From an uncultured bacterium (GTDB lineage: Bacteria > CAYUVA01): a DNA stretch of 64,000 nucleotides. Positions 23,378 through 39,438 of the stretch are shown here, piece by piece. The translations under genes were made by a program, and so were the position numbers. Within the stretch, counting starts at the first letter, position 1, and every line of letters starts with the position of its first letter. Where the stretch lies: positions 7,769 through 71,768 of the forward strand of contig CAYUVA010000012.1 of assembly GCA_964448115.1 (NCBI GenBank). The letters run 5' to 3'. The notes under the pieces were generated by a model. The model was not told the origin of the DNA, ran no database searches, and saw nothing but the letters and a program-made list of their open reading frames with translations.

Positions 23378-25150
23378 TTATCGAGATAAAGAATACATAA
23401 TATCTTCCAGGCGACCATCCTTAAACATCAGCACCACATTATCGTATTTTAGGCGTTCAATGGTCTCAAGGTTATCATCGGGAAGTGAAATATTAAGGAA
23501 GGCAGCCGTCTCTTCTATGCCCATGCCAGGCTCCAGGAAATCTGTGATCCCATCGCAGGTGAAATCGATGAATCGGTCATCACAATAGCATCTGTCCTCA
23601 TAGCTTCGGAAAACTCCGCTCATGTAACCATTCTCGAACAGGTAGGAGGCATAGCCCCTGGGGGTGCTATAGATGGCGATAAAAGGAGCCTCCTGGTTAT
23701 CGACCTCTACGAATCCCCTTGAGTAAGATCGATTTATCTTTACAATAAAATCAGGCTTGCCAGCGAGGCTCGTGAAGTAATCCACTGGTGAAAGATTCAA
23801 CGCCATAAGAAACTTATGCTCCTTAGCCATCTGCTGATCGACCTCTAGCGGTTTCAATCCTGTGGATAATAGTCTTATCTTGTCGGTAAGGATCTGTCGG
23901 AAGCTGAGTTCTCCAACGGTTGGAATATAGCCGCTTGCGAATTGGTGCAAAAACAAGGCATTGTAGGCAACAAGAACCAGGTACAAAGCAACCGTCGGTA
24001 TGGACAGTCTTCTTCCACTGACTTGCTGGAGTAACTCGGCAGCGCCAAAGGCGATTATGGCCGTAACGCAGGCGAACTGCCTTAAGCCATAATGCATCCC
24101 GATGCCATAAAACTTGACACAACTGTTTATGTAGGCTTGCATGAAAAAGGCTATCAGCAGCGAGATCAGAAGTAACCTTCTTCTTGCGCCGATTATCAAT
24201 CCGATCAAGCCGATACCTAAAAAAGGTGTCCAGACCAATAAACCGTGGTTGGTGGAGAAGAACATGGACAACAGCTTGGGATGCTGCGGACGCAGAAACG
24301 AGCTGCCTGCATAATAATATACGAAAAGTTTCTCGTGGATATACTGCCAGTAGATGATCTGCGGAGAGAATCCGATCAGCGCTGATGGGATGATCAAAGC
24401 GTTGATGCCGATTATACGGGGGATTATGATGAAGTTTCTCGATCTCATCGCCTGGTATAGCCTCCAGATCATATCAAGCAGCGGCAGGATCAGAAAAAGT
24501 CCATTCTGCCAGCGCACCAGGATCATCATCCCCCCTGCCAGCCCGAGTATAATCATGCTCCTTGCCGTGGGATCATTCCTCTGCTGATGCCAATAGTAGA
24601 TAAAAAGGGTAACCGCAAAGAATGAAGGGGCGTGGTTCATCGTGGTCTGCCATATTGTGGTGTTCAGGGTCGCTGTTCCCGCGACCGCAGCTAATGAGCA
24701 TAACCCGCTTATCCATATCGGGTAGTGGCTCCTCAGCAGCCGAAAGGTCAGCGCAATGCCAATGAAGCTGTATAATAGGTTGGCAAAGTAGGCTGAAAAT
24801 CGGTGGAATAGCGACATTGGGTCCGTGGATACCGCAAATCCAAGCTTGGATAGGATGATGCTAAGAAGATGAAAGAGCGAAAAAAATGGCGCCCAGAGAA
24901 GAGCCGTGCCAACTGGAACCGAGTGATAATGACCTCGCTGTGGATTAAGCAGAACCTGCCTCTCCATCCACCAGAAGCTACGGTCGAATATAAAGCTGAC
25001 CACCTGGCTATAGTATCCGTTGGCATCCCCCTCAAGAATCGGCTTGATATCGAGACGCACCTGTATCACGAAGAAAAGGGCTAGAATAAACAAAGCAGCC
25101 AATACCCAAAAAAATGGAAGCTCACCTGAAATCTTATCTTTGAGGCTCAT
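23378..25150 (-). CDS. Polytopic membrane protein, putative GT-C fold glycosyltransferase (ArnT/PMT-like topology)
   Basis: 590 aa with 12 or more hydrophobic segments. Acidic loop motif EGDANGYY after TM1 resembles the first-loop DE motif of GT-C families. No soluble catalytic domain recognisable. Confidence 0.65.
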   Translation of the reverse strand: MSLKDKISGELPFFWVLAALFILALFFVIQVRLDIKPILEGDANGYYSQVVSFIFDRSFWWMERQVLLNPQRGHYHSVPVGTALLWAPFFSLFHLLSIILSKLGFAVSTDPMSLFHRFSAYFANLLYSFIGIALTFRLLRSHYPIWISGLCSLAAVAGTATLNTTIWQTTMNHAPSFFAVTLFIYYWHQQRNDPTARSMIILGLAGGMMILVRWQNGLFLILPLLDMIWRLYQAMRSRNFIIIPRIIGINALIIPSALIGFSPQIIYWQYIHEKLFVYYYAGSSFLRPQHPKLLSMFFSTNHGLLVWTPFLGIGLIGLIIGARRRLLLISLLIAFFMQAYINSCVKFYGIGMHYGLRQFACVTAIIAFGAAELLQQVSGRRLSIPTVALYLVLVAYNALFLHQFASGYIPTVGELSFRQILTDKIRLLSTGLKPLEVDQQMAKEHKFLMALNLSPVDYFTSLAGKPDFIVKINRSYSRGFVEVDNQEAPFIAIYSTPRGYASYLFENGYMSGVFRSYEDRCYCDDRFIDFTCDGITDFLEPGMGIEETAAFLNISLPDDNLETIERLKYDNVVLMFKDGRLEDIMYSLSR

Positions 25151-26157: not shown

Positions 26158-28587
26158 TCAAGCCTTCAGCATACAGATAGCAGCTATGATATAAATAGCA
26201 CCTGAGAGCATAAAAAGAAAGGTGAATCCGATGGTCATGGCTATAAACATGGCTGCAATGGAGCCGATGACCGATGCGCAGCCATTTATACCCCAGCACC
26301 AAGGAGTAAACTTGGTTTTCCTTTGTGATACCATAAGCAAGCCTGATGGAAAGGGCATGCCTAGCAATAATCCTATCGGTGCAGTGATGACAAGCGCGAT
26401 AGCTACTCTGATAAAAAATGGGATGCCCAGTAGGCTATCGAGCAGTGGGAAAACCAGAGATACATATAATGTGATCAAGCAAACCAGCGCTATTACGACC
26501 AGGGTAACATTTCTTTTGGCTTTATCCTGCAATCTCGAGGCTAGCAGGCTGCCGACCCCGGTAAAGACCAATATCGAAAGCAGCACAACGGTTATCGAGT
26601 AGATCGGATGCCCCAAGAACAGGTTCAGCTTCTGGATCAAAGAGATCTCCATGAACATGAAGCCGACGCCCAGGCAAGTGAAATAAACCAGAAAAAATCC
26701 AGAGCCAGGCATCCGAATCCCGTCTTTGTTGTTCTTGTAAAGTGGATAAAGGATAAAAAGCACCGAGAGGAAGATCGCCTGGATGAATAAGACGATAAGA
26801 ATTATCTCTCCGATGGGGAAACTAGCGCCATCCTGACCGCCTACACCACTGGGAGAGAGTCTGAAGTCATGCCACTTGTAGTACTTGAAGAAAAACGGCG
26901 CATCATCATATACCGGCACGATGTTATATCGGTACATTTCATAGAAAGCTTGCGGATCATCGCTGTTAAGCAAGCCATAAAAAGCGTTGTTCCCCACCCG
27001 TCCAGGCAGGTAGAGTTTCTCAAAGCCATTTTTATCGGCAAAACTACGCAATGTATCTATCTCTCGTCTGGTCAGGGGAGTTTTCTTGAGGATAAAGCTG
27101 GCGTAAGTCCCCTCGCCGATGACCGCAATATTATCCCTTGGATGTCCCATATCGGCACACTCGAAGGCTACTATGGCGAGTGAACATAGCCTGAGCACCT
27201 CCCGTGGAGGACGAAACATGTAGCGGATATAGCATATAGTGCCGTCATCCTTGAGATGAGCCAGCATATCGAGGATGGCTTCTACTGTATAGAGGTAATT
27301 CTCGCTGAGCGTATATGCTCCCGATGCCAGCCCTGACCAGGTGTCCACGCCAGATAACTGGATATGGTCATACTGCTGCTTGCTTCTCCTGATGAAGCTC
27401 CTTCCCTCGCAATAGTGGATATCTACCAGCTTGTGTTGATAAAGATTTCCCGTGAAGTCAGCGAAATACCTGCCGGGTATATCGACCATGACCCGGTTCA
27501 GCTCAGCGCCATCTACCCTTGAGGCTCCGTTTTTCAGCGCGGTGAGGATGTCTATACCCCCGCCTAATCCGATTGCAAGCACCTTCGGTGCATCGTGCAA
27601 TTGGTATGCTACTGAATAAAGTGCATGATCCAGCGCTTCCAACTTGCTAAAGTCCCCATCGAAGGCGGTAAGCATGGTGCCAGCGTCTCCATCTATCGAG
27701 ATCCCGTACTGCGGGGGGATGTAGCCCTTATAGCGGTCGCTTAAACCGACTATATGCATCGGCGCCGGATGCTCGCTGATAGAGGTTACATCCAGGCGGG
27801 ATATCAGGCTCCACTTGGAGAAGACGATGCGAGGGGCGTAGCCCTGCTTGGATAGCGCAAGCATCTCCGCCAGTCCCTTGCTCGGACAAGGAGGGACGCG
27901 CAGGGCGGTAGGAGATATGACAAACAGGAAGACAAAGATAAAAACTGATCCACCGACCTTTAGATAATCCCAACACTTTAAGGATCCAAGAGAAAATAAA
28001 ATAAAGGCTGCTAATGGTAATGTCGCACAGATTATTAAAACACGCGGCGCACCTAGAGGTGATATCAAGCCAGCCACCAGCAGGCATCCTACCCCGGCGC
28101 CGAGTAGATCCCAGAAATAGATGCGACTTATTCTCGCTGGATACATGGTAAAAGAGGCGCCAATAATCACCCCGGCAAAGAAAAATGGCACAAACAACAA
28201 TAGGTAATATAAGAACAGGTAGATCAACTGTATTGGCTCAGACCAAACCTTGAACGGATCCAGCGGTATCTCTCTAAGTAGAATATAGGCTACAATAGTG
28301 CTTATCGAGAAAAATAGCGAATTATCGGACAGCATCCTCTTATGCGCATCGTCTCTGGCAAGGCTGCTGCTTACCGACAGATAAGCCCCGGATGCGCCGA
28401 AGCCCAACAGCACGATACTTATAACCATGAAGGCGAAGTGGTACCATATCGTTATACTGCATATCCGAGTTAGCAGGATCTCCAGTGAAAGCACCGAACA
28501 GGAGACCAGGAAGATCCCGGCATAGACGCTGCTGGAGAATCGATTCGAGGTGTTATAATTCATTTCTATCCTTGAGCTATTATTCAA
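26158..28587 (-). CDS. Membrane-embedded spermidine synthase-like (aminopropyltransferase-fold) protein
   Basis: 809 aa with many TM helices at both ends. Central Rossmann region VLAIGLGGGIDILTALKNGASRVDGAELNRVMVDI ... KLVDIHYCEGRSF ... YDHIQLSGVD matches the spermidine/spermine synthase SAM/dcSAM-binding fold. Confidence 0.8.
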   Translation of the reverse strand: MNNSSRIEMNYNTSNRFSSSVYAGIFLVSCSVLSLEILLTRICSITIWYHFAFMVISIVLLGFGASGAYLSVSSSLARDDAHKRMLSDNSLFFSISTIVAYILLREIPLDPFKVWSEPIQLIYLFLYYLLLFVPFFFAGVIIGASFTMYPARISRIYFWDLLGAGVGCLLVAGLISPLGAPRVLIICATLPLAAFILFSLGSLKCWDYLKVGGSVFIFVFLFVISPTALRVPPCPSKGLAEMLALSKQGYAPRIVFSKWSLISRLDVTSISEHPAPMHIVGLSDRYKGYIPPQYGISIDGDAGTMLTAFDGDFSKLEALDHALYSVAYQLHDAPKVLAIGLGGGIDILTALKNGASRVDGAELNRVMVDIPGRYFADFTGNLYQHKLVDIHYCEGRSFIRRSKQQYDHIQLSGVDTWSGLASGAYTLSENYLYTVEAILDMLAHLKDDGTICYIRYMFRPPREVLRLCSLAIVAFECADMGHPRDNIAVIGEGTYASFILKKTPLTRREIDTLRSFADKNGFEKLYLPGRVGNNAFYGLLNSDDPQAFYEMYRYNIVPVYDDAPFFFKYYKWHDFRLSPSGVGGQDGASFPIGEIILIVLFIQAIFLSVLFILYPLYKNNKDGIRMPGSGFFLVYFTCLGVGFMFMEISLIQKLNLFLGHPIYSITVVLLSILVFTGVGSLLASRLQDKAKRNVTLVVIALVCLITLYVSLVFPLLDSLLGIPFFIRVAIALVITAPIGLLLGMPFPSGLLMVSQRKTKFTPWCWGINGCASVIGSIAAMFIAMTIGFTFLFMLSGAIYIIAAICMLKA

Positions 28588-28769: not shown

Positions 28770-29624
28770 ATGCATCAAGAGAACCCAATGAACATTGCAG
28801 CAGATCATATCGAGTTTCGCCGTTTCATACTTCAGTGCGAGCGCATCATCGCCCAGATCGATGACTATGCTGATCGCCTGGAAGCGCTGGTTGAGCCATT
28901 CAACAGACTTCTATTGGAGCGTCGCCTGGTCGAGGATGCTGTTATGCGCCTTTTCAAGGATGAGGATTATCTAAGAAGCCAGTCGAGTTGTCTGCATAAG
29001 AATGAGCTTAAGTTATATCGCGATCCACACGATGAGTTCTCGGTTCGACTATTTCTATGGCAGGCTGGAGTGATGTCCGAGATACATGATCACGGCAGTT
29101 GGGGGCTGGTCGGATGCGCTCTAAATCAACTCAAGATTCTTCATTATCGAAGGCTCGATGATGGTTCTAAACCTGGTTTCGCCGAGTTGGAACCGAGCAA
29201 ACAAGTTTTTCTGGAGCCTGGACAGTGCGAGAAGGTGTTTCCCTTCAACCATGGCATCCACCAGGTCGGAGCTGATGTGATCAAGCCGGCTATATCGATC
29301 AGCCTTTATCTCAAGCCACTGCGTAAGGGATATATCTACGCTTTTAACCGGTTGCTCAACAAGTGTTGGAAGGAGTATCCGACTATTGTTGAAAAAAAGT
29401 ACCTCGCAACCTTGCTTTTCGAGCACTTCGAGAGCAGCAGCAGGTATAATGCGCTGTGGGCAGCGAGCGATGATAGAACACCACTGGTGAGACTGGAGGC
29501 GATGAAATTACTTTTAAAAGTCGCGCCGGAGAGGAGGCAGGATATCATCGAGAAAGGTTTGCACGATCCTGCACAGGAGGTTCGTAAGGGGCTAAAGGAA
29601 TATCTGGAGGGGATAGGCGACTAG
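28770..29624 (+). CDS. Hypothetical protein with cupin-like (cysteine-dioxygenase-type) N-terminal half and HEAT-like repeats at the C-terminus
   Basis: IHDHGSWGLVGC ... HGIHQVGAD are candidate metal-binding His motifs. C-terminal ALWAASDDRTPLVRLEAMKLLLKVAPERRQDIIEKGLHDPAQEVRK is HEAT/PBS-lyase-like. First gene of an eight-gene + strand operon. Confidence 0.6.
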   Translation: MHQENPMNIAADHIEFRRFILQCERIIAQIDDYADRLEALVEPFNRLLLERRLVEDAVMRLFKDEDYLRSQSSCLHKNELKLYRDPHDEFSVRLFLWQAGVMSEIHDHGSWGLVGCALNQLKILHYRRLDDGSKPGFAELEPSKQVFLEPGQCEKVFPFNHGIHQVGADVIKPAISISLYLKPLRKGYIYAFNRLLNKCWKEYPTIVEKKYLATLLFEHFESSSRYNALWAASDDRTPLVRLEAMKLLLKVAPERRQDIIEKGLHDPAQEVRKGLKEYLEGIGD

Positions 29625-31024
29625 TGGTACCTGCACAGAAACCGAATATCGCAGTATTTACGCCGCTTAATCCGATCAAAAGCGGCATCTCGGATTATAA
29701 CCATGAGCTTCTCCCCGCACTTGCCAAGCATTATTATATCGATGTCTTTGTGGATGATAGCCCCTGGGATTTCCCTGTATCCACTGATAAATACCGGGTT
29801 TTTCATCATCTTAACTTTGCAAGGCTGTACAATGAAAAACGCTACCAGGCGGTTATTTATCATCTGGGGAATAACCTTTTCTCTAACTACATGTATTCCT
29901 ACCTCGCCAATTATCCAGGAGTAGTCGTACTGCATGACACAGTGCTGCACGGGCTTCGAGCCATGCACTATCTGGGTCGTAACCAGCGCGAGCACTACGA
30001 GGCGGAGATTATGTTTTCCCATGGTGAAGGAGCGCTATCGGTGGCTAATCTTGTTGCCTCTGGGATGGTCAGTCCCTTGCTATTGCGCATATTCCCCATG
30101 CTTCGTATCCCCGTGGAATCGGCTAAGATCGTCCTGGTGCACTCCAGGGCGGCAATGGAACAGGTCGTTTTCAGCTTCCCAGGTGCAAAGGTACAGACAG
30201 TGCCCATGGCGTTTAGGGATCCGTATCCACACCTGCAAAAGGAAACACAAGAAGGGCATCGTGATTCCCTGAACATCGATGTCGATGCCTATCCAGTGTT
30301 AGGTAGCTTCGGATTCGTTACCCAGCACAAGCGACTATCGATCATCCTGCCCATATTCAAGGATCTTTTGCGTAAGTATCCCCGCGCCAAGTACTATATT
30401 GTCGGCAAAGTACTTCCCGAGTACGAAAATGAGCTTGCCGAGCTTATCCAAGGGAGCGATCTTTCCCAGAGCGTTATCCCTACCGGCTATGTGGATATGG
30501 AGACCTACTACCGCTACATGCGGGCTGTGGATATTGCAATAAACCTGAGGTACCCCACCTACGGCGAAACCTCTGCATCGCTCATTCGCCTTCTCGGTTG
30601 CGGGGTGCCTACCATTGTGAGCAATCTTCACCAGTTCGCACAGATCCCTGACTCGGCGGTCGCCAAGGTCGATATATATCCGAATGAAGTTGATCAGCTC
30701 AGGCAGATGCTTGAGCTACTAATCGAGGATAAAAAGGTGCGAGATACGCTCGCTGCAAATGCTGCGGCTTATATCTCAAAGAACAACTCACTTACTGACA
30801 CTATCTCAGCATACAAACAGGCTATCGATTTTGCTATGCAGCAGCCGTTCAAACCGTCTTTATTATTACTTCACAAGGAGTTGAGCCACCTAACCTTTAA
30901 GAGCCATATACTTACTGGGATGGGCAAGGGCATCTTAGGTGATATAACGAAGCGATACCCTGAGGATGTGAGCTTTATGGTGTCGAAGCTATTGCTTCGC
31001 GCCTGGAATAAGGTGGTTCGGTAG
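29624..31024 (+). CDS. Glycosyltransferase family 1 (GT4-type, GT-B fold)
   Basis: C-terminal GT-B donor-binding region: PTYGETSASLIRLLGCGVPTIVSN ... (E-X7-E-like). GTG start overlaps the upstream TAG (ctaGTGg). Confidence 0.85.
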   Translation: MVPAQKPNIAVFTPLNPIKSGISDYNHELLPALAKHYYIDVFVDDSPWDFPVSTDKYRVFHHLNFARLYNEKRYQAVIYHLGNNLFSNYMYSYLANYPGVVVLHDTVLHGLRAMHYLGRNQREHYEAEIMFSHGEGALSVANLVASGMVSPLLLRIFPMLRIPVESAKIVLVHSRAAMEQVVFSFPGAKVQTVPMAFRDPYPHLQKETQEGHRDSLNIDVDAYPVLGSFGFVTQHKRLSIILPIFKDLLRKYPRAKYYIVGKVLPEYENELAELIQGSDLSQSVIPTGYVDMETYYRYMRAVDIAINLRYPTYGETSASLIRLLGCGVPTIVSNLHQFAQIPDSAVAKVDIYPNEVDQLRQMLELLIEDKKVRDTLAANAAAYISKNNSLTDTISAYKQAIDFAMQQPFKPSLLLLHKELSHLTFKSHILTGMGKGILGDITKRYPEDVSFMVSKLLLRAWNKVVR

Positions 31025-31068
31025 TACAAACCGATGTAACAAAGGCAAACTGCCTATAAACAGTCCAG

Positions 31069-31968
31069 ATGAGGCGATACATGGAGAATTTAGTTGCCAC
31101 CGCTGATGGCGTAAAGCTTTTCTATCGTGATTACGGGGAGGGCTTGCCACTGGTGCTCTGCAATGGCTTTGCCTGCAACGATTATGCCTGGAAATACATG
31201 GTTCGACACTTCCAGGACAAGATGAGGGTGATACTTTGGGATTATCGTGGACATGGTCGCTCCAGCCTCCCTGCCAGGGTTGAACCGTTTGAATTCAGCC
31301 TTTTCATCGATGATCTTTTCACGGTACTGGATAATGCTGGAGTAGAAAAAGGCGTTTTTGCCGGGCATAGCATGGGAGTACAGACTATCCTGGAGGCTTA
31401 CCGTCGGGATGCAAAGCGAGTTGCTGGGCTTATACCGATCTGCGGCAGTTTCAAGAACCCTGTGGAGACCTTTCAGGGCTTGCGTATCTTCCATTATCTT
31501 ATGCCTTATCTCTTCGTTGGGATGCGCCATTTACCGCAGATGCTCAGCTTCTCATCTAAGCACATCTTCAACGGCGAGCTTGGATGGCTGGTTGCTATTA
31601 CAATCGGCATCAACGGGTATTTGATCAACAAGGAGGACTTCATGCCCTACCTGGATCACCTGGCGACCAGGGACTGGTGTTTCATGGGCGAGCTGGCAAG
31701 GGCGATGAGGGAGCAGTCCGCTGATGACTTGCTTGAACGGGTAAAGGTTCCCACTTTGGTGGTCGCCGGTGATGAGGATAAGTTTACCCCCCTTGAGCTA
31801 TCCCTTGAGATGGCAAACAGGATTCCCAATGCCGAGCTGCTCGTGGTCAAGCACGGGATGCATACGACTACACTTGAGCAACCGGAGCTGGTGAACCTCA
31901 GGATAGAGAAATGGCTTTGCAAGCATGGTTTCTTGATAAAAAAACAAGAAGGTAAGGTGCAGCGATGA
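31069..31968 (+). CDS. Alpha/beta-fold hydrolase
   Basis: Nucleophile elbow FAGHSMGV (GxSxG). LVLCNGFA ... C-terminal region with Asp/His. Alternative ATG at 31081 has better RBS spacing. Confidence 0.88.
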   Translation: MRRYMENLVATADGVKLFYRDYGEGLPLVLCNGFACNDYAWKYMVRHFQDKMRVILWDYRGHGRSSLPARVEPFEFSLFIDDLFTVLDNAGVEKGVFAGHSMGVQTILEAYRRDAKRVAGLIPICGSFKNPVETFQGLRIFHYLMPYLFVGMRHLPQMLSFSSKHIFNGELGWLVAITIGINGYLINKEDFMPYLDHLATRDWCFMGELARAMREQSADDLLERVKVPTLVVAGDEDKFTPLELSLEMANRIPNAELLVVKHGMHTTTLEQPELVNLRIEKWLCKHGFLIKKQEGKVQR

Positions 31969-33500
31969 GTCCTGAAAATACTAGACTCTCGTCGGGTACG
32001 ATAAGGAAGCTGAAACAAATATTTGGGAAAGAGAATGTCTCCACCGACGAGACCGACAAGATAAGCTACTCCAAGGATATGTTGCCAGCGGGATTGCTGG
32101 CGATAAGGCGATTGGAGCCACCGCCTCCGCCTGATGTAATCGTCTGGGCACATAAAACCGAGCAAATATGCGAGCTGCTTCAGTTGGCGAACAGCCAGGG
32201 CTTCCCGGTCATACCTTATGGTGCAGGATCCGGCGTCTGCGGAGGTACATTTCCGCTTAGCGGGGGCGTCATATTGGATATGAAGCGGATGGATAAAATT
32301 ATCGAGCTTGATGACAATTCCCTTACCGCGAAGATCCAGGCTGGCATCGTGGGGCAGATTCTGGAGATGGAGCTGAACCGAAGGGGCTATACCCTGGGGC
32401 ATTTCCCATCCTCCATCTATTGCTCGACCCTGGGCGGGTGGCTAGTTACACGCAGCGCAGGACAGCTCTCCACCAAGTATGGCAAGATCGAGGATATGGT
32501 CATGGGCTTGCAGGTGGTGCTCCCTAGCGGACAGGTGATCGCCACCAAGGCTGTGCCCCGCAGCGCTACCGGACCCAACTTGACCCAGTTGTTTGTCGGC
32601 TCCGAGGGATTGCTCGGTGTGGTTACAGAAGCGATCATGCGCATCTGTCCCTACCCCCAGGCTATTCGCTATTGTGCATACCTCTTTCCCGATGTACCCA
32701 GCGGATGCGAGGCTATTCGCCTAATACTGAGAAGCGGCGCCAAGCCTGCTGTGGTCAGGCTCTACGATGAGCTGGATACCATGCTGGTCGGCTCCGGCAA
32801 GGCTGATGATGAGGGCGATTCGCTGATCAAGCGCCTTATTGGCTCTTACATCAAGGAGAATGTGCCCGCTGGAGTTCTCAAGGCAGTGGTCAATCACTTC
32901 ACGGTGGTGGAGAAGCTCTCCAAGGCGCTCAAGGCGCAGTGCCTCCTCATTCTCGGAATGGAGGGAAGCGAGGAGCTGGTCGAGGCGGAGAGTAGCATTG
33001 TTCAAAGGGTGTGCAAAGAGGCTGGCGGTAAAGACCTGGGAGAAAAGCCGGGATTGAACTGGGAGAAGTCTAGGTATAATGTCTCTTATCGCATGTCCAC
33101 CGTGTTCGACTCTGGGGCTTTTGTCGATACCATCGAGGTTGCCATCACCTGGGATCGCCTGACCGAGCTTTACTTTGCGGTTAGAGAGGCACTAGTGCCG
33201 CACTGCTTCATCATGGCGCACTTCTCACATGCATACCCAGAGGGTTGCTCCATATACTTCACCTTTGTTGGCGCAGCAGATGACGATAAACAAAGTGAAA
33301 AGAAATACTTCGAGATATGGGACAAAGCGCTCAATGCAGTTCTATCTGTAGGGGGCACAATCAGCCACCATCACGGCATCGGCTGGCTGAAGGGCAAGTA
33401 CATGCCCGCAGAGCACGGGGATGCCTTTGAGGTGCTGCGCGCCATAAAAAGCACATTGGATCCAAACAATATACTCAATCCAGGAAAACTGGGATTATAA
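31965..33500 (+). CDS. FAD-linked oxidase (PCMH-type FAD-binding; GlcD / D-lactate dehydrogenase / alkyl-DHAP synthase family)
   Basis: FAD-binding: PVIPYGAGSGVCGG ... GGVILDMKRMDKI. C-terminal HHHGIGWLKGKYM ... LDPNNILNPGKL. ATGA overlap with the upstream hydrolase gene. Confidence 0.92.
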   Translation: MSPENTRLSSGTIRKLKQIFGKENVSTDETDKISYSKDMLPAGLLAIRRLEPPPPPDVIVWAHKTEQICELLQLANSQGFPVIPYGAGSGVCGGTFPLSGGVILDMKRMDKIIELDDNSLTAKIQAGIVGQILEMELNRRGYTLGHFPSSIYCSTLGGWLVTRSAGQLSTKYGKIEDMVMGLQVVLPSGQVIATKAVPRSATGPNLTQLFVGSEGLLGVVTEAIMRICPYPQAIRYCAYLFPDVPSGCEAIRLILRSGAKPAVVRLYDELDTMLVGSGKADDEGDSLIKRLIGSYIKENVPAGVLKAVVNHFTVVEKLSKALKAQCLLILGMEGSEELVEAESSIVQRVCKEAGGKDLGEKPGLNWEKSRYNVSYRMSTVFDSGAFVDTIEVAITWDRLTELYFAVREALVPHCFIMAHFSHAYPEGCSIYFTFVGAADDDKQSEKKYFEIWDKALNAVLSVGGTISHHHGIGWLKGKYMPAEHGDAFEVLRAIKSTLDPNNILNPGKLGL

Positions 33501-34624
33501 TGCTCAACAAGTACCTTAAGGAACACGCAAAGACGATAAGCTACTGCACCTATTGCCCCAAGATGTGTCGTTTTGCGTGCCCGGTCGGGGTCGCTGATGC
33601 CTCTGAGACCTCCATTGTCCAGGGACGGATGACCTTGCTTCACCTGGCGCTGGGAGGGGCTATCGACTTTGATGAACAGGTAGCCTCTATGGCATATAAA
33701 TGCTGCACCTGCCTGCACTGCAATACCTACTGCCGTCATGACTTCAACATACCGGATGTCATGTACGATGCCAGGCGAGCAGCCTATGAACTCGGAGTGG
33801 AACCGAAGATAATAACCGAGCGGATGCTCAACTTTGAGCACTTCAACAATCCATATCCCTTGGATCTGAGGGACGAGCTGGAGGGTCTGGTCGAGGAGCG
33901 CTTCTTCGCAAAGGGCGCCTCCGCGGTCTATTTCCCTGGCTGCAATACTATCTTGAGGCAGCAAAAGAACCTGTTGAATACCCTCGAGATATTCGATGAG
34001 CTAGGTATTGATTTTGTCTCGGTTTGGCAGGATAAGCAGCAGTGTTGCCTGGCACCGATGATTACCGCGGGGAGAACATCTGAGTTCATCGCCCTGGCAA
34101 GGGGGATCGCCAGCGCGATGAGGGACTACAGGCTGATCATCTTTGCTTGTCCGCTTTGTTATTATGCCTTCAGGGTGCTCTATCCTCGGTATGGCTTCAA
34201 TATAGGCAGAAAGATGCTGCACATCAGCGAGTTTTTGCTCGACAGATTGAAGGGCAGTAAAAGGAAACTGAAGCCAGGAGATTATGGTAAGATCGCCTAT
34301 CATGATCCCTGCTACCTGGGGCGCTACATGGGGATATATGATGCACCCCGCGAGCTGCTCGTGCTGTGCGTTGGTGATGCTTTCAGCGAGCTTTACCGCG
34401 TTCGCCAGGATTCGATTTGCTGTGGAGCTAACGGGTGGCTGCCTGCTGTCTATCCTCAGACCTCGCGGCGCATCCTAGACTTGAAGCTCGCCGAGTATCG
34501 TGAGATGGAATATGATGCCTTAGTTACCGCCTGCCCTACATGCGAGACCCACTTCAACAAGCGAGCGAAGGATATCGAGGTGCTAGATCTGGTAAACATA
34601 CTTCGCAATACGCTATATCGATAA
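33500..34624 (+). CDS. Fe-S oxidoreductase with two CCG domains (GlcF / HdrD-like)
   Basis: Two ferredoxin-like Cys clusters (CTYCPKMCRFACPV; CCTCLHCNTYC) and two CCG motifs (CCLAPMITAG; CCGANGW). Start overlaps the upstream stop (TAATG). Confidence 0.9.
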   Translation: MLNKYLKEHAKTISYCTYCPKMCRFACPVGVADASETSIVQGRMTLLHLALGGAIDFDEQVASMAYKCCTCLHCNTYCRHDFNIPDVMYDARRAAYELGVEPKIITERMLNFEHFNNPYPLDLRDELEGLVEERFFAKGASAVYFPGCNTILRQQKNLLNTLEIFDELGIDFVSVWQDKQQCCLAPMITAGRTSEFIALARGIASAMRDYRLIIFACPLCYYAFRVLYPRYGFNIGRKMLHISEFLLDRLKGSKRKLKPGDYGKIAYHDPCYLGRYMGIYDAPRELLVLCVGDAFSELYRVRQDSICCGANGWLPAVYPQTSRRILDLKLAEYREMEYDALVTACPTCETHFNKRAKDIEVLDLVNILRNTLYR

Positions 34625-34636
34625 CAAGGTTGGCTC

Positions 34637-35560
34637 ATGCAAGCCCGACATAGCACCATTTGGACCATCCTGTTGGTCGGCATCGCTGCCTTGGCTTTAG
34701 CCGGGGCAGATCATAATCAGTCCCTGGCATCCCTTATGTCCGATCCCAAGGAGAAGCCCTTTATCAAGCAAGGATGGTTTTATGATCTGAACCTGGCGCT
34801 TCAGGCTGCCAAGACGAGCCGAAAGCCAATCCTGATCCAGTTCTACACCACCTGGTGCGGGTGGTGCAAGAAGCTGGAGAATACTACTTTCTCTGATGGC
34901 AATGTAACCGTGTATCTCAAAGAAAACTTCATAACAGTCAAGCTGAACGCCGAGAAGGTCGATCGGATCGCTAAATCATACCAGGTGCGCTCCTTTCCCA
35001 GCTTCGTGCTTCTCGATGCCAAAGGTGAGGAGATAGACCGCTTCAACGGATATAGAGATGGTAGAAAATTTAAGGCACTGCTCGAAGCCTTGCTTTTCAG
35101 CCCGCACACTTTCGGCGCTCTGCGGTCAAGGATGAGAGACGGAACCGCCAATGATGAGGATCTGCTCAACCTTGCCAGGGGATATGCAGCCAGGAACATG
35201 CTCCTTAAGGCAGGCGAGGCATACCAGTTAATAATCGACCGCGACTTCTACAGTAAGGGACACTTCACTGATCGAGCGCTATATGAGCTTGGCATACTGA
35301 TGATGAAGCAAAGGAAATACCCGGATGCCCTAGATTTGTTCAAGCGAGTGTACGAGAAATTCGCTAATAGCGACCTGCAAGGGCGATCTATGCTCATGAT
35401 TGGACAGGTCTATGAGCTTTCCGAAAAACCATCCATTGCCATGGGCTGGTACAAGCGATTCATCGACCATTATCCCAATGCGAAGGAGGTTGGCTGGGCG
35501 CAGAAAAAGTTAGAAAAGCTAAGAAAGGAAATCGCAGTAAAAGAAAACGATCAGCCATGA
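34637..35560 (+). CDS. Secreted thioredoxin-fold protein with C-terminal TPR-like region
   Basis: Signal peptide MQARHSTIWTILLVGIAALALAG. Thioredoxin active site ILIQFYTTWCGWCKKLE (CxxC as WCGWC). C-terminal TPR-like helices (ALYELGILMMKQRKYPDALDLFKRV ...). Confidence 0.8.
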   Translation: MQARHSTIWTILLVGIAALALAGADHNQSLASLMSDPKEKPFIKQGWFYDLNLALQAAKTSRKPILIQFYTTWCGWCKKLENTTFSDGNVTVYLKENFITVKLNAEKVDRIAKSYQVRSFPSFVLLDAKGEEIDRFNGYRDGRKFKALLEALLFSPHTFGALRSRMRDGTANDEDLLNLARGYAARNMLLKAGEAYQLIIDRDFYSKGHFTDRALYELGILMMKQRKYPDALDLFKRVYEKFANSDLQGRSMLMIGQVYELSEKPSIAMGWYKRFIDHYPNAKEVGWAQKKLEKLRKEIAVKENDQP

Positions 35561-36579
35561 ACAGATATATCATCTACCCGGCATTCATCCCCCATCTCGG
35601 CTGCCCCTTTGAGTGTGTTTACTGCAATCAGCGGCTGGTCAGCGGACAGGTAAACCTTAAGCCACCGCAAATAAGGCAGGGGCTGAACGAATGGCTAGTA
35701 TCAATCAAGAGAAAACCGAGCGCTGATGGGATGACAAGGGTGGTCGCATTCTACGGGGGAAGCTTCACCGGCTTGAGCCTTGAAGAACAGCAGTATTTTC
35801 TTACGCCAGCTACCGAAGCTAAGCGACGAGGCGATATCGATTCCATCAGGCTCTCTACCCGTCCCGACTTGATCGATGCCGAAAAGCTGGCTTTCTTAAA
35901 AAAGATGCTGGTTGATACTGTGGAGCTTGGCGCTCAATCTATGGATGATGATGTACTCAAGCAAAGCAAGCGGGGACACAGGGCAATAGATGTCAAACAA
36001 GCGGTGGATGCATTGCGTGCACATAATCTCAAGGTTGGCTTGCAGATAATGCCTGGGCTCCCCGGCCATACAGACCGGAGCATCGACTTTACCATCAGCG
36101 AGAGCATCGCGCTCAAGCCCGATATGGTGCGCATCTATCCAACCGTAGTGCTCAAGGGGACAGCATTGGAGGCGATGTTTCGCAAGGGAGCATACAAGCC
36201 GCTTGCGATCGATGATGTCGTTTCAATGGGAGTAGGGTGGCTTAAACGCTTTACTGATGCTGGTATTCCAGTCATTCGACTCGGATTGCATCCCGATCCA
36301 TACCTGGTTAGCTCGAATGCGGTTGTGGCTGGTCCCTTTCATCCCGCGCTTCACTACCTGATAAGGTGTCGCATGGCAAGAGAAAAGCTTGCTTCCCTAT
36401 TGCGTAATTCGCAGCCGTCCAGGAATGCAGTGGTGGTTATCAAGGTTCCAGCAGCCAGGCTGAGCGAGTATCTGGGCAATAGACGGGAGAATATACAATT
36501 TCTTGCAGAGATGTTTGATATCGGAGAGCTTGAGATAATACCTGATGCAACGATTAGCGTGCCGGTGATCGCTAATTAA
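35557..36579 (+). CDS. Radical SAM protein (ELP3-like / TIGR01212-like core)
   Basis: IPHLGCPFECVYCNQ cysteine motif near the N-terminus. GG glycine-rich SAM motif VAFYGGSFTG. ATGA overlap with the upstream gene. Confidence 0.85.
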   Translation: MNRYIIYPAFIPHLGCPFECVYCNQRLVSGQVNLKPPQIRQGLNEWLVSIKRKPSADGMTRVVAFYGGSFTGLSLEEQQYFLTPATEAKRRGDIDSIRLSTRPDLIDAEKLAFLKKMLVDTVELGAQSMDDDVLKQSKRGHRAIDVKQAVDALRAHNLKVGLQIMPGLPGHTDRSIDFTISESIALKPDMVRIYPTVVLKGTALEAMFRKGAYKPLAIDDVVSMGVGWLKRFTDAGIPVIRLGLHPDPYLVSSNAVVAGPFHPALHYLIRCRMAREKLASLLRNSQPSRNAVVVIKVPAARLSEYLGNRRENIQFLAEMFDIGELEIIPDATISVPVIAN

Positions 36580-36595
36580 TTGATATCTCACGCAA

Positions 36596-36708
36596 AGACA
36601 CAAAGAACTCAAGGAGGATAGAAAAACGAGGTACAAGGAACAAGAAACCAAGTGCGAAGAAAGGAATCCCACGCAAAGACGCAAAGAGGAAAAGGACGCA
36701 AAGAGGAT
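36596..36708 (+). repeat. Purine-rich 5' leader with repeated CGCAAAGA(C/G) units and many GGA motifs
   Basis: cacgcaaagaca (36589-36600), cacgcaaagacgcaaagagga (36670-36690), gacgcaaagagga (36695-36707). Seven or more GGA trinucleotides in about 120 nt immediately upstream of the GT4 ATG at 36709. Confidence 0.45.
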
Positions 36709-37893
36709 ATGAAAAAGAGGATCCTGATCATTAGCTCCACGGCGCCCTATCCGCTGGACAACGGCGGAGCACAGAGGCTTTATCACATACCTCGCCTGCT
36801 GTCCGATGACTACGAATTCCACCTGATAACCTTCAGCAAGCAGGGAGTGGAAGCCTCTATGATCGCCGATGCTGCGCCATTCTATGCAAGCGTTAAAACT
36901 GTACCTCTCGGCAGGTATCCCGCTCGCTTGAATGCAGTGCGCATTACACCACGAATGGTGCTGCACCACAAGAGCAGCGAGATGGGGCAGGTGATATCAT
37001 CCGCCATCGACCAATATAGTTTCGACCTGGTGCAGATCGACTACACGCAGATGGGGCAGTATGCCAGGCTGCTACCCAATTCGCTCCCTCGTGTCCTGGT
37101 CGTGCATGACATCGCCCACATAGTCTATAAACAATTATTTTTAATAAAGCCGATTTCATTAAATAAGCTGGTTTCATTGAGCGAGTATGCAAAGATACTA
37201 TTCTACGAGAGGCGAGTTTTCCATAATTTCAGGCAACTGGTCGCCCTGAGCGATCCTGATGGCAAATACCTGCACAAGATTTGCTCTAATAAGCAATCCA
37301 TATCAGTGATCCCACAAGGCTTCGATGAGCACCAGCTCAAGGGAATAATCGGCGAACATAGCGACAAGCCGCAGCTTCTCATAGTCGCCAACCTGGGCAC
37401 GCAGCCGAACATCATCGCAATCAACGATTATCTTAAATATATCCATCCCCGCCTAAAAAAGCGCTTTCCTGGGCTGACTATATGGATTGTTGGCTCTGAT
37501 CCCCACAATCTCTTTAATGGTAAGCGTATCAAGGGAGTAGAATTCACCGGCTATGATGATGATCTAAGTAAATTCTATGCCCGCAAGCCGATCTGCATAC
37601 TGCCTTACCGCATCGGCTCTGGAATGCGAACAAAGGTGCTGGAGGCAATGGCTGCCGGGTTGCCCATAATAGCGACTCCACTGGCTGTATCCGGGATACC
37701 GCTGCTAGATGGCGAATCAGCGCTGATTGAATCATCCATTCCTCGCTTTGTCGATCGTTTAGGGCAGCTAATACCGGATGCTCAAGCCAGGTTGCGCCTG
37801 GGCGAATCAGCTAGGGAGCTTGCATTCAAGCATTTTACTTGGGGCAACGCTGCTCAACTGGTCGATTGTCTTTTTCAAAGTATCCTTGGCTAG
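36709..37893 (+). CDS. Glycosyltransferase family 1 (GT4-type)
   Basis: MKKRILIISSTAPYPLDNGG ... ILPYRIGSGMRTKVLEAMAAGLPIIATPLAVSGIPLLDGESALI. The ORF track's GTG at 36652 would add a basic RRKESHAKTQRGKGRKED extension, so I prefer the ATG at 36709. Confidence 0.88.
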   Translation: MKKRILIISSTAPYPLDNGGAQRLYHIPRLLSDDYEFHLITFSKQGVEASMIADAAPFYASVKTVPLGRYPARLNAVRITPRMVLHHKSSEMGQVISSAIDQYSFDLVQIDYTQMGQYARLLPNSLPRVLVVHDIAHIVYKQLFLIKPISLNKLVSLSEYAKILFYERRVFHNFRQLVALSDPDGKYLHKICSNKQSISVIPQGFDEHQLKGIIGEHSDKPQLLIVANLGTQPNIIAINDYLKYIHPRLKKRFPGLTIWIVGSDPHNLFNGKRIKGVEFTGYDDDLSKFYARKPICILPYRIGSGMRTKVLEAMAAGLPIIATPLAVSGIPLLDGESALIESSIPRFVDRLGQLIPDAQARLRLGESARELAFKHFTWGNAAQLVDCLFQSILG

Positions 37894-39373
37894 CAATTGA
37901 AGCTGCTTGCGGTTTGTTGCCGTTGCCTGAAAAGATGCTCTCCCAGGTGCTTCTCAAGGCATTACCAATCAGTATAATCCCACCGAGCACCATGTTTCGC
38001 GGGGTTATTGTTCCTTGTCTTATGTGTCTTAGTATCATGCCCGGCCGTAGGTAATATGAGTTCATTGCCTTGCGTTGCAGTAGCGCCAGTTCGTGGTGCG
38101 ACATTCCCTCTGGGGCATAAGCCAGCTCTCCGCCGAATGCGGACCAGTCCGTCCAACTGGTAAACTTTTCCGGCTCTAAGGTGGCGATCCGTCCCCGCTC
38201 CTGCTCGTAGAAACGCGAACCAGGCAAGGGCACAGCAACATTGAACTTGACGATGTCGCAGTCAAGCTCCTTGGCAAAGCGGATGGTATCCATACAGGTC
38301 TCGGTTGTCTCTCCAGGCAAGCCAAGCATCCATAGACCTAAAGTCAGTATCCCCGCCTTCTTGATGTATCCCATAATTCGTCTTGCTTGAGCCAGGGTAG
38401 TTTTCTTGTTAATCGAATCTAGGATATGTTGATTGCCGACCTCGAAGCCGATCATGATCAGATGGCACCCGGAGCGCTTCATTGCCATTACCAGCTCCTC
38501 GTTGAGCAGATCGACCCTGGTCTCGGTTACCCAGCGGATCTTTTTATGCAGCCCTCTTTTTACAAGCTCCTCACAGAATTTTAAGCCGTGCCGTATGCTG
38601 AACGGGAAGTTGGCGTCGTTGAAGCCGACGTAAGGCGCTTGGTAGCGCTCATGCATGTACTCGATTTCATCAACTATGGCGGCTATGCTCCTGAAGCGAG
38701 GCTTTTCATAGACCTGATCCTGCGAGCAGAAGGTGCACTTCCAGGGGCAGCCCCGCGAGCCGACAATGGGGATGATAAGGTCTCTCACCGACAGGAGGGG
38801 AATCCCCTGGCTATAATACTCGAAATCGAGCAGATCCCACGACGGATATGGCAAGGAGTCGAGGTCGATAATCGGCTGTCGAGGTTTAGTGAATTTCACC
38901 TCGCCATCCCGTTTGAAGGCTATGCCATCGACCTTTGAGAGATCCCCATCCTCTGCCAGGCAATGTATAAGCTGCAAGCTGGTCATCTCCCCCTCGCCGA
39001 ACACGATCACATCTGCCAGATCCTCACGCAGAATTGTATCTGGAAAAACATTGGCATGGATATTACCCCAGAAGACGAGCGTATCTGGACAAGTGCGCCT
39101 GATGCCAGAAACGATCTTGGAGACCATGGGGACGACCGGCGTAAGCACCGAAAAGCCTACCGCATCCGGTTTTTCCTTGCTAATGCGATCAACGATGCGC
39201 TGTACCGATTCCTTAGTGGCATGCTGGTCGATTATCGATACTTCAATGCCATCGTTTCTCAGCACCGAAGCTATATAAGCCAGCCCTGATGGCAGGATAG
39301 GCAGAACGAAGCTGCGGATGCGATAGCTAGCCTGGATTAGCTCCGAGGCGGGATTTATGAGCAACACCTTCAT
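37835..39373 (-). CDS. B12-binding (class B) radical SAM protein
   Basis: MKVLLINPASE ... B12-binding-like region (LPSGLAYIASVLRNDGIEVSIIDQH). Radical SAM motif VGSRGCPWKCTFCSQ. The ORF track starts at a TTG at 39400; the ATG at 39373 gives the typical N-terminus. Its 3' end overlaps the convergent GT4 gene by 59 nt. Confidence 0.88.
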   Translation of the reverse strand: MKVLLINPASELIQASYRIRSFVLPILPSGLAYIASVLRNDGIEVSIIDQHATKESVQRIVDRISKEKPDAVGFSVLTPVVPMVSKIVSGIRRTCPDTLVFWGNIHANVFPDTILREDLADVIVFGEGEMTSLQLIHCLAEDGDLSKVDGIAFKRDGEVKFTKPRQPIIDLDSLPYPSWDLLDFEYYSQGIPLLSVRDLIIPIVGSRGCPWKCTFCSQDQVYEKPRFRSIAAIVDEIEYMHERYQAPYVGFNDANFPFSIRHGLKFCEELVKRGLHKKIRWVTETRVDLLNEELVMAMKRSGCHLIMIGFEVGNQHILDSINKKTTLAQARRIMGYIKKAGILTLGLWMLGLPGETTETCMDTIRFAKELDCDIVKFNVAVPLPGSRFYEQERGRIATLEPEKFTSWTDWSAFGGELAYAPEGMSHHELALLQRKAMNSYYLRPGMILRHIRQGTITPRNMVLGGIILIGNALRSTWESIFSGNGNKPQAASIASQGYFEKDNRPVEQRCPK

Positions 39374-39438
39374 TCTATTAGTATCTAGTATATCTAACAA
39401 TGAGTTGTCAATCTAGGGGAGGCTTCCATAGAATTCAC

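Follow-up and report, generated by a model that had tools for sequence, protein, structure and literature searches.

Whether a tightly packed run of glycosyltransferase and redox genes encodes one biosynthetic pathway or an assembly of separate modules is the question raised by a 64,000-nucleotide stretch of DNA from an uncultured bacterium (lineage CAYUVA01), referred to below as the window. Eight plus-strand open reading frames (ORFs), designated g1-g8, occupy positions 28770-37893 of the window, at the coordinates given in an earlier note, which had suggested that they form a single pathway that tailors a glycolipid or glycan through oxidation and thiol-disulfide chemistry. All eight ORFs and their junctions can be read from the sequence as a tight cluster, and the domain calls made earlier agree with Pfam and NCBIfam. 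In our assessment, with a probability of roughly 55%, g1-g8 form a probable operon that is a lineage-specific mosaic of modules and not one conserved pathway, the core of which is a redox module of the glycerol-phosphate/ether-lipid type formed by g4 and g5. The cluster reads as a mixture of modules because g4 and g5 are the only genes of the eight that are kept together elsewhere. This reading is built on direct observations of gene anatomy, family membership, synteny counts and the conservation of active sites; a connection to glycolipids, joint transcription of the genes, the substrate and the course of the electrons are proposals drawn from them.

The product of g4 (31965-33500, plus strand) is a 511-aa FAD flavoprotein composed of FAD_binding_4 (6.8e-39) and FAD-oxidase_C (6.1e-43) Pfam domains, and it would be the catalytic "A" subunit of the module. 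Its best solved relative is the alkyldihydroxyacetonephosphate synthase (AGPS) of Dictyostelium (2uuu), which aligns with g4 in one stretch over residues 13-509 (E-value 2.4e-79, 270.6 bits). Mammalian AGPS (4bby) follows with 196 bits, D-lactate dehydrogenase (D-LDH) with 165, LctD with 142 and glycolate oxidase with 136, this order being a score ranking among solved structures and not a tree, with the Myxococcus xanthus protein MXAN_1676 outside the comparison. In alignments with the Dictyostelium and guinea-pig enzymes, the SHHHGIG segment of g4 corresponds to the SHHHGVG segment of AGPS, FSHAY to ISHTY, and VVRLYD to MIRVYD. No substitution of Arg265, Tyr424 or His468-470 of g4 occurs among 26 aligned homologues or among the 16 "A" (first-position) paralogues compared. 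We take these positions to be the active-site Arg, the catalytic Tyr and the His-His-His loop of AGPS, as reportedly described by Razeto (2007) and Nenci (2012). The counterparts in human AGPS are presumably R419, Y578 and H615-617. Many members of the g4 family are labelled alkyldihydroxyacetonephosphate synthase by JGI. On the strength of the score difference from D-LDH and of the conserved Arg, Tyr and His-His-His positions, g4 is assigned as an AGPS-type flavoprotein, which replaces the earlier description of it as a generic oxidase or dehydrogenase.

The product of g5 (33500-34624, plus strand) is an Fe-S protein with an N-terminal ferredoxin motif of the 2x[4Fe-4S] type followed by two CCG domains of the GlpC/GlcF/HdrD type (Pfam CCG twice at 1.3e-24, plus Fer4_8). 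Its NCBIfam matches to TfrB, LdhH, GlpC (73.4 bits against a cutoff of 278) and GlcF (52 against 333) are all below the cutoffs. A synteny scan with one genome per species yielded 80 loci that carry g4 relatives of 44-54% identity, in metagenome-assembled genomes (MAGs) labelled Myxococcota/Deltaproteobacteria, Thermodesulfobacteriota, Planctomycetota, Chloroflexota, Nitrospirae, Wallbacteria, Cloacimonadota and Bdellovibrionota. Of these, 73 extend far enough downstream to score g5, and 61 of the 73 have a g5 homologue on the same strand, downstream of the g4 homologue. The two genes are directly adjacent, as in the window, in 18 of the 61 pairs, spaced by 0.8-1.6 kb in 40, and farther apart in three. 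Where the 0.8-1.6 kb interval was examined, it encodes a second FAD_binding_4/FAD-oxidase_C paralogue, in which the Arg, Tyr and His-His-His positions are often lost. This second flavoprotein resembles GlcE in its relation to GlcD, and in MAGs labelled Myxococcota it is often fused to its AGPS-like partner (~880-950 aa). Fusion of AGPS to CCG had been considered for the ~880-aa family members and was rejected, their real composition being AGPS plus a second FAD domain. The window has no GlcE-like subunit and holds the minimal two-gene form of a module that elsewhere usually includes a degenerate GlcE-like second flavoprotein.

The company kept by the module in the 80 loci points toward lipid metabolism. 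A DAGK_cat/YegS_C lipid kinase is found at 32 loci, a GlpA/GlpD-type glycerol 3-phosphate (G3P) dehydrogenase at 15 and a GlpB-like protein at eight, often in the order GlpA-GlpB-GlpC directly upstream of the module; apolipoprotein N-acyltransferase (Lnt; seven loci) and GAPDH (three loci) are rarer. Glycosyltransferases are never among the recurrent partners. Homologues of g1, g2, g3, g6, g7 and g8 were absent from all 80 loci, even at an E-value below 1e-3 without a coverage filter, the sole exceptions being weak partial matches to g3 in one locus (L076) and to g7 in another (L019). Conservation of gene order in relatives, which the earlier note had proposed to examine and the absence of which it had regarded as counting against its pathway, is therefore found for g4-g5 and not for the other six genes. 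It does not extend to g1-g8 as a whole, and g1, g2 and g7 have other contexts elsewhere.

A plainer account of g4-g5 would make them an ordinary GlcD/GlcF-type dehydrogenase of 2-hydroxyacids (D-lactate or glycolate), or a G3P dehydrogenase, that feeds the quinone pool as part of central metabolism and happens to lie among glycan genes. The top NCBIfam match of g4 is in fact GlcD (TIGR00387, 2.9e-65), and g5 matches GlcF, GlpC, LdhH and TfrB. Moreover, the three-gene form found elsewhere mimics GlcDEF in combining a catalytic and a degenerate flavoprotein with a CCG protein, and glycerol catabolism could explain the neighbouring GlpABC and GAPDH genes. However, these matches remain far under the curated cutoffs (220.7 against 567.9 bits for g4 and GlcD, with GlcF as given above), g4 is clearly nearer to AGPS than to solved D-LDH, LctD or glycolate oxidase, and the family shows no variation at the His-His-His, Tyr and Arg residues aligned with AGPS. 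The commonest extra neighbour, furthermore, is a lipid kinase and not a transporter or permease for small acids. An ordinary dehydrogenase of this kind is, on balance, regarded as an improbable identity for the pair.

For the g4-g5 module as an ether-lipid-type enzyme, a possible course of reaction can be proposed. The AGPS-type active site and the partners of the module elsewhere, namely a lipid kinase and a G3P dehydrogenase that makes dihydroxyacetone phosphate (DHAP), point to lipid chemistry at the level of DHAP or glycerol phosphate, most likely the formation of an ether bond. The substrate that we infer for g4 is a lipid precursor derived from DHAP or glycerol phosphate, on which the enzyme would most likely exchange an acyl for an alkyl group to form the ether bond, as AGPS does. 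The Fe-S protein g5 could carry electrons between the flavin of g4 and either the quinone pool or a thiol/disulfide carrier, and this transfer, in whichever direction it runs, may connect the G3P and the DHAP level of substrate oxidation. The hydrolase g3 might act as a generic hydrolase/acyltransferase that supplies or removes the acyl group for g4, the sole pointer to such service being the translational coupling of the two genes through ATGA. Genes g1, g6 and g7, for which other genomes show either different conserved contexts or none that was found, would most likely be passengers.

The genes on either side of the module belong to families with other associations. The first glycosyltransferase, g2 (29624-31024, plus strand), has a GTG start and encodes a 466-aa protein of glycosyltransferase family 4 (GT4; Pfam Glycos_transf_1, 1.7e-11) of a polysaccharide-type subfamily. 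This family counts 1185 representatives at an E-value below 1e-30, many of which are tandem double-GT4 proteins of ~800 aa. Among the neighbours of g2 relatives at 80 metagenomic loci are other GT4s (38), Wzt with Wzt_C (17), methyltransferases (12) and an ABC-2 permease, a layout that corresponds to ABC-transporter-dependent (Wzm/Wzt) polysaccharide synthesis. Relatives of g1, g3, g4, g5 and g6 are absent from these 80 loci. An FAD/Fe-S pair is thus unusual in the company of such GT4s, and the earlier note is supported on this point. A metagenome scan with g2 alone for closer relatives retrieved nothing. The second glycosyltransferase, g8 (36709-37893, plus strand), comprises 394 aa from the ATG at 36709 (Pfam Glyco_trans_1_4, 1.2e-18). 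It matches TIGR03087 (stp1, a PEP-CTERM/XrtA-associated glycosyltransferase) at 1e-40, yet with 140.2 bits against a cutoff of 316.65. A PEP-CTERM/exosortase system was rejected on account of this sub-cutoff match, the absence of an exosortase from the window and the presence there of just a weak PrsT-like TPR match. Both g2 and g8 are classed as polysaccharide-type GT4s of the surrounding envelope-glycan neighbourhood. Between g2 and the module, g3 (31069-31968, plus strand; public start 31081, 295 aa) encodes an alpha/beta-fold hydrolase with a GHSMG nucleophile elbow (Pfam Abhydrolase_1, 7.5e-20), the top NCBIfam match of which is PcaD-like and far below the cutoff.

The first gene, g1 (28770-29624, plus strand; public start 28788, 278 aa), encodes a cupin of the thiol-dioxygenase type, that is, of the type of cysteine dioxygenase (CDO) and 3-mercaptopropionate dioxygenase (3MDO), with C-terminal HEAT-like helical repeats. 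It has no Pfam match at the default threshold, CDO_I reaching 13.6 bits against a cutoff of 23. A phmmer comparison with the PDB retrieved CDO together with 3-mercaptopropionate and mercaptosuccinate dioxygenases (E-value ~4e-8) with the three iron-ligand His residues aligned, and the corresponding His100, His102 and His158 are invariant in an alignment of homologues. The AlphaFold (AF2) model, with a predicted local distance difference test (pLDDT) score of 92.9, finds thiol dioxygenases as its top Foldseek matches (E-value ~3e-12), and it ends in five helices (residues 203-275) where a 34%-identical homologue (P0248) has a HEAT_2 domain. The earlier cupin-HEAT assignment is borne out by the PDB matches, the model and this homologue. 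The cupin fold and 3-His iron site that characterize thiol dioxygenases are thus present in g1; the Ser-His-Tyr second-sphere triad is not kept, since a Ser takes the place of its His when g1 is aligned with 6xb9. The family is rare, with 59 matches, and in all four contexts of g1 relatives that were examined (L088, L090, L092 and L094) a gene for a ferredoxin-like protein of 275-315 aa (Fer4_7/10/16) lies directly upstream on the same strand. The cupin and Fer4 genes apparently constitute a conserved two-gene unit. In the window, g1 has no such Fer4 gene upstream, and no GT4 or other glycosyltransferase accompanies the g1 relatives in the four contexts.

The sixth gene, g6 (34637-35560, plus strand), encodes a thioredoxin-fold protein with a CGWC motif and C-terminal TPR repeats (Pfam Thioredoxin_2/Thioredoxin/Thioredoxin_7 and TPR_12). 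A hydrophobic segment at residues 5-23, followed by ALA-GA, suggests that the protein is probably exported. Homologues of g6 were not found beside relatives of g4/g5, g1, g2 or g7. The comparisons gave no evidence that ties the thioredoxin-TPR protein or the cupin to the GT4s or to the FAD/CCG pair.

The same genes could alternatively be read as a thiol-centred pathway, in which g1, the BshA/MshA-like GT4s g2 and g8, g5 and g6 would make or recycle a glycosylated low-molecular-weight thiol. Such a pathway would account for the thiol-dioxygenase fold and 3-His site of g1, and among solved structures g2 and g8 come closest to BshA (E-value 4.6e-4) and MshA (E-value 2.6e-6). In HdrB and DsrK, CCG domains carry out disulfide reduction, which would suit a role of g5 in thiol recycling. 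The GT4 matches are weak, however, and reflect which GT4s have solved structures, while neither a deacetylase (BshB/MshB) nor a cysteine ligase (BshC/MshC) is encoded in the window. In addition, g1 relatives never lie beside GT4s, g5 relatives never lie beside thioredoxins, and g6 is probably exported. A bacillithiol- or mycothiol-like pathway was rejected for its weak GT4 matches and its missing deacetylase and ligase, and a thiol-centred role of the cluster in general is judged very improbable.

The product of g7 (35557-36579, plus strand) is a radical SAM protein related to ELP3/MnmL that lacks a GNAT domain (Pfam Radical_SAM and Radical_SAM_C). It matches ELP3 in the PDB over the core only (8e-20), and it misses the curated ELP3 and MnmL(YtqA) cutoffs (TIGR01211, 91.7 against 350 bits; TIGR01212, 76 against 180). 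The family is large, with ~45%-identical homologues labelled Oscillospiraceae, Nitrospinae and Desulfobacteraceae. One set of ~24 contigs (L082-L084) places g7 relatives in a run of topA, GIDA-family, plsX-type, rnc, radical SAM, smc and ftsY-type genes, and this housekeeping run suggests an RNA-related or cell-cycle-related role for the family. Two other contexts of g7 relatives have a small second radical SAM gene downstream, and one of the two also has a TrxR-like gene upstream.

The eight genes are separated by gaps of -4 to +56 nt, with one 129-nt spacer ahead of g8. The g1/g2 junction is TAGTG (1-nt overlap), with GGAGGGG ~12 nt 5' of the GTG start of g2; the g2/g3 gap is 44 nt, or 56 nt with the public start of g3; the g3/g4 junction is ATGA (4-nt overlap); the g4/g5 junction is TAATG (1-nt overlap); the g5/g6 gap is 12 nt; the g6/g7 junction is again ATGA (4-nt overlap); and the g7/g8 gap is 129 nt with the g8 start at 36709, which agrees with the recorded 394-aa product. 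Promoter-like sites inside the cluster number six against 11.5 expected from shuffles, and terminator-like sites 11 against nine, counts that say little about transcription. From the tight packing we infer that g1-g8 are probably co-transcribed as one operon. Close spacing is no distinguishing mark of g1-g8, because unrelated co-directional genes elsewhere in the window are packed equally tightly: DprA/TopA (2 nt), ABCF/TPR (12 nt), TPR/radical SAM (26 nt), radical SAM/B12 radical SAM (4-nt overlap) and PurS/PurQ/PurL (-4 and 2 nt). At its 3' end, g8 overlaps the 3' end of a convergent B12 radical SAM ORF by 59 nt (37835-37893), which leaves a terminator without intergenic room unless the ORF ends are miscalled. 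Horizontal transfer of g4-g5 was rejected, since GC content and third-position GC content (GC3) lie inside the range of the window, with PurL similar.

The 129-nt spacer (36580-36708, plus strand), noticed earlier as a purine-rich leader before the last GT4 gene, is indeed present and rich in GGA. It contains an 18-nt direct repeat, CACGCAAAGACRCAAAGA, at 36589-36606 and 36670-36687 (two copies against zero expected), which is absent from the rest of the window. A riboswitch or structured leader before g8 was rejected (folding z = -0.29 against shuffles; no Rfam match at E-value <=1). The many GGA motifs could make the spacer a candidate site for a CsrA-like or other regulator.

The surroundings of the cluster are chromosomal, as DprA, TopA, LigA and PurSQL are present in the window, and the region from ~18.8 to 48.5 kb is rich in genes of the envelope-glycan/lipid type, GT4s included. 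Upstream of g1, the plus strand carries a gene for a 657-aa membrane protein with eight predicted transmembrane (TM) segments and TPR repeats (18800-20773), followed by a radical SAM-SPASM and B12 radical SAM pair (20800-23333). On the minus strand lie genes for a 590-aa polytopic membrane protein with seven predicted TM segments and no Pfam match at E-value <=1 (23378-25150) and an 809-aa polytopic membrane protein with two TM bundles around a weak spermidine-synthase-like domain (sub-threshold Spermine_synth; 26158-28587). These large polytopic proteins at 18800, 23378 and 26158 may be envelope enzymes of the GT-C or polymerase type. Downstream, a second B12 radical SAM gene (37835-39400) is convergent with g8, and the minus strand encodes a 785-aa polytopic membrane protein (45083-47440) for which 12 TM segments are predicted and which lacks a Pfam match at E-value <=1. 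A 24%-identical homologue of the latter (439 aa aligned) lies at L017:11545-13917, convergent with and right after an AGPS-like gene. An alkaline-phosphatase-family phosphodiesterase, an HpnB/CruG-like GT2-hexapeptide acyltransferase fusion and a UDP-GlcNAc 2-epimerase are also encoded nearby. The NCBIfam matches of the flanking B12 radical SAM proteins (BchE, HpnJ, HpnR and ladderane-type) are all sub-cutoff.

Similar radical SAM genes recur at a few of the loci of relatives. At L101:2486-6155, a g2-type GT4 gene is followed on the same strand by radical SAM-SPASM and B12 radical SAM genes with 28-30% identity to the pair at 20800-23333 of the window. Among the g4 loci, a plus-strand run at L019:938-13957 opens with two B12 radical SAM genes, an FGE-sulfatase-like gene, an unassigned ORF, a radical SAM-SPASM gene and a further B12 radical SAM gene, and continues with a PMT_2 membrane glycosyltransferase, the AGPS-like gene, the CCG gene and a DAG-kinase-like gene. 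The run echoes the radical SAM-SPASM/B12 radical SAM pair, the polytopic membrane proteins and the second B12 radical SAM gene of the window. Two B12 radical SAM genes also lie near the AGPS-like gene of L065. B12 and SPASM radical SAM genes are probably common in MAGs of anaerobes, so the co-occurrence at L019 and L065 is a lead without statistical meaning.

These neighbours bring back the possibility that the cluster is one pathway after all. According to this alternative, g2-g5, with or without g8, would make an ether-linked anchor of a glycolipid or lipoglycan: the AGPS-like/CCG pair would build the alkyl-glycerol backbone, the hydrolase would add or remove an acyl group, the GT4s would add sugars, and g1, g6 and g7 would tailor or mature the product or the enzymes. 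Such a pathway would fit the co-directional, short and overlapping junctions, features that g1-g8 share with unrelated genes of the window. It would also fit the weak NCBIfam match of g2 to monoglucosyl-diacylglycerol synthase (2.6e-6), the lipid-type GT2 (HpnB/CruG-like), B12 radical SAM and polytopic membrane proteins nearby, and the co-directional arrangement of AGPS, CCG and DAGK genes with radical SAM-SPASM, B12 radical SAM and PMT_2 glycosyltransferase genes at L019. In contrast, neither a GT4 nor a g3-like hydrolase lies beside any of the 80 g4 homologues, the g2 family is of the polysaccharide (Wzm/Wzt) type and not of the lipid-headgroup type, and the g7 family occurs in housekeeping contexts. 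Compartments also differ: export is probable for g6, but no membrane or signal segment is predicted for g4, g5 or g7, which are probably proteins of the cytoplasm. Furthermore, all specific family cutoffs are missed. A single tailoring pathway, as first suggested, thus retains its operon-like arrangement and its envelope-glycan neighbourhood and loses its standing as one conserved pathway, only g4-g5 being syntenic; that the eight genes nevertheless act together is considered unlikely.

Several observations weigh against the interpretation of the cluster as a mosaic built around an ether-lipid-type module. The CCG subunit argues for a dehydrogenase and against simple AGPS chemistry, because characterized AGPS is redox-neutral and works without an Fe-S partner. 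The alignment of g4 begins at residue 95 of Dictyostelium AGPS and residue ~205 of mammalian AGPS, so that g4 lacks approximately 90 N-terminal residues of the former and 200 of the latter. Pfam scans of ORFs of at least 150 aa found neither a fatty-acyl reductase (FAR) nor a DHAP acyltransferase (GNPAT) in the 64-kb window, the nearest to a reductase being a sugar-epimerase-type short-chain dehydrogenase/reductase with a secondary NAD_binding_4 match. The lipid kinase, GlpA, GlpB, GlpC and Lnt that accompany the module elsewhere are likewise absent from the window, and the missing lipid kinase and GlpABC count here. On the side of gene organization, the stop/start overlaps at g1/g2, g3/g4, g4/g5 and g6/g7 suggest that translation is coupled across the boundaries of the supposed modules, and the L019 locus hints that an association of the module with glycan- or lipid-tailoring genes could recur. 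Finally, lack of synteny is itself weak evidence against a shared function, because the nearest relatives are at most 54% identical. In the libraries searched, these relatives reach 54% identity for g4, 47% for g7 and 42% for g2, and each of the window proteins that were checked stands alone in a clustering of ~15 billion proteins at 90% identity. The source lineage is very poorly sampled, and the eight-gene arrangement appears to be unique to it.

If the assignment of g4-g5 as an ether-lipid-type module is correct, its consequences reach beyond this genome. Bacterial alkyl-glycerol ether lipids and branched tetraethers are in wide use as environmental biomarkers, and just a part of their biosynthetic genes is known (PMC13159169, PMC11868695). 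Recent surveys take the presence of an M. xanthus Agps homologue to mark the capacity for ether-lipid synthesis (PMC11868695, PMC13159169, bioRxiv 10.64898/2026.06.23.733905), while g4 and its relatives, annotated as AGPS by JGI, form a distinct module coupled to CCG, and this coupling implies chemistry beyond the redox-neutral reaction of eukaryotic AGPS. The module is a concrete and testable candidate for an uncharacterized bacterial ether-lipid or glycerol-phosphate redox enzyme. More speculatively, and with a rather small chance of being right, the AGPS-type and CCG proteins could constitute a redox-coupled ether-lipid synthase, so far uncharacterized and widespread in uncultured and anaerobic bacteria, which would convert precursors at the glycerol-phosphate level to alkyl-glycerol phosphate without FAR or GNPAT. 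Here and at L019, such a synthase would have been recruited with B12/SPASM radical SAM proteins and glycosyltransferases to produce modified ether (glyco)lipids like those that serve as biomarkers in sediments. For the cluster as a whole, the lesson is one of annotation: in a compact genome, tight spacing joins modules of different evolutionary history, and a single glycan-tailoring label is unwarranted without transcript and mutant data.

Compared with known systems, the g4-g5 module is not unique to the window and is best described as a putative variant of the AGPS/GlcDEF-type systems. The literature searched contains no description of an association of CCG, GlcE-like, DAG-kinase and GlpABC proteins with an AGPS-type protein and no reported activity for any member of a CCG-linked AGPS-type subfamily, and a search on the mycobacterial Rv2251/Rv2252/glpD1 neighbourhood found nothing relevant. 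For g2, the closest parallel is offered by WbdA-type multi-GT4 mannosyltransferases with Wzm/Wzt and a terminating methyltransferase, in that g2 relatives are often tandem double-GT4 proteins beside Wzt, an ABC-2 permease, GT4s and a methyltransferase, a likeness of architecture and not one from a direct sequence comparison with WbdA; Wzm/Wzt is absent from the g1-g8 cluster and the genes adjoining it. With GlcDEF and the FAD-CCG D-lactate dehydrogenases, g4-g5 share the flavoprotein superfamily and the CCG/ferredoxin electron-transfer subunit, and the three-part layout of GlcDEF matches most g4-related loci. Unlike GlcDEF, the window has no GlcE-like subunit, the curated GlcD, GlcE, GlcF and GlpC cutoffs are widely missed, the active-site loop of g4 is of the AGPS type (His-His-His), and the partners of the module are a lipid kinase and GlpABC in place of genes for glycolate or lactate utilization.

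AGPS (EC 2.5.1.26; 2uuu, 4bby) has the same two-domain VAO/PCMH flavoprotein fold as g4, and its Arg, Tyr and His-His-His positions are kept in g4. The eukaryotic N-terminal region is absent from g4, and its partner is a CCG protein, joined at other loci by a GlcE-like second flavoprotein, a lipid kinase and GlpABC. The validated agps gene of M. xanthus (MXAN_1676) shares its operon with a gene for a FAR-GNPAT fusion (PMC13012113), whereas neither FAR nor GNPAT is encoded in the window. Other routes to ether glycerolipids, namely the elbB-E cluster (ElbD) of myxobacteria and PlsA/PlsR-Ger of anaerobes, occur in overlapping bacterial groups (PMC13159169, PMC11868695). Pfam domain scans of the window, run without a direct sequence comparison, found no ElbD- or PlsA/Ger-like protein. 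ElbD and PlsA/PlsR-Ger belong to protein families unrelated to g4, and what they would share with the proposed g4-g5 module is the end product, ether-linked glycerolipids.

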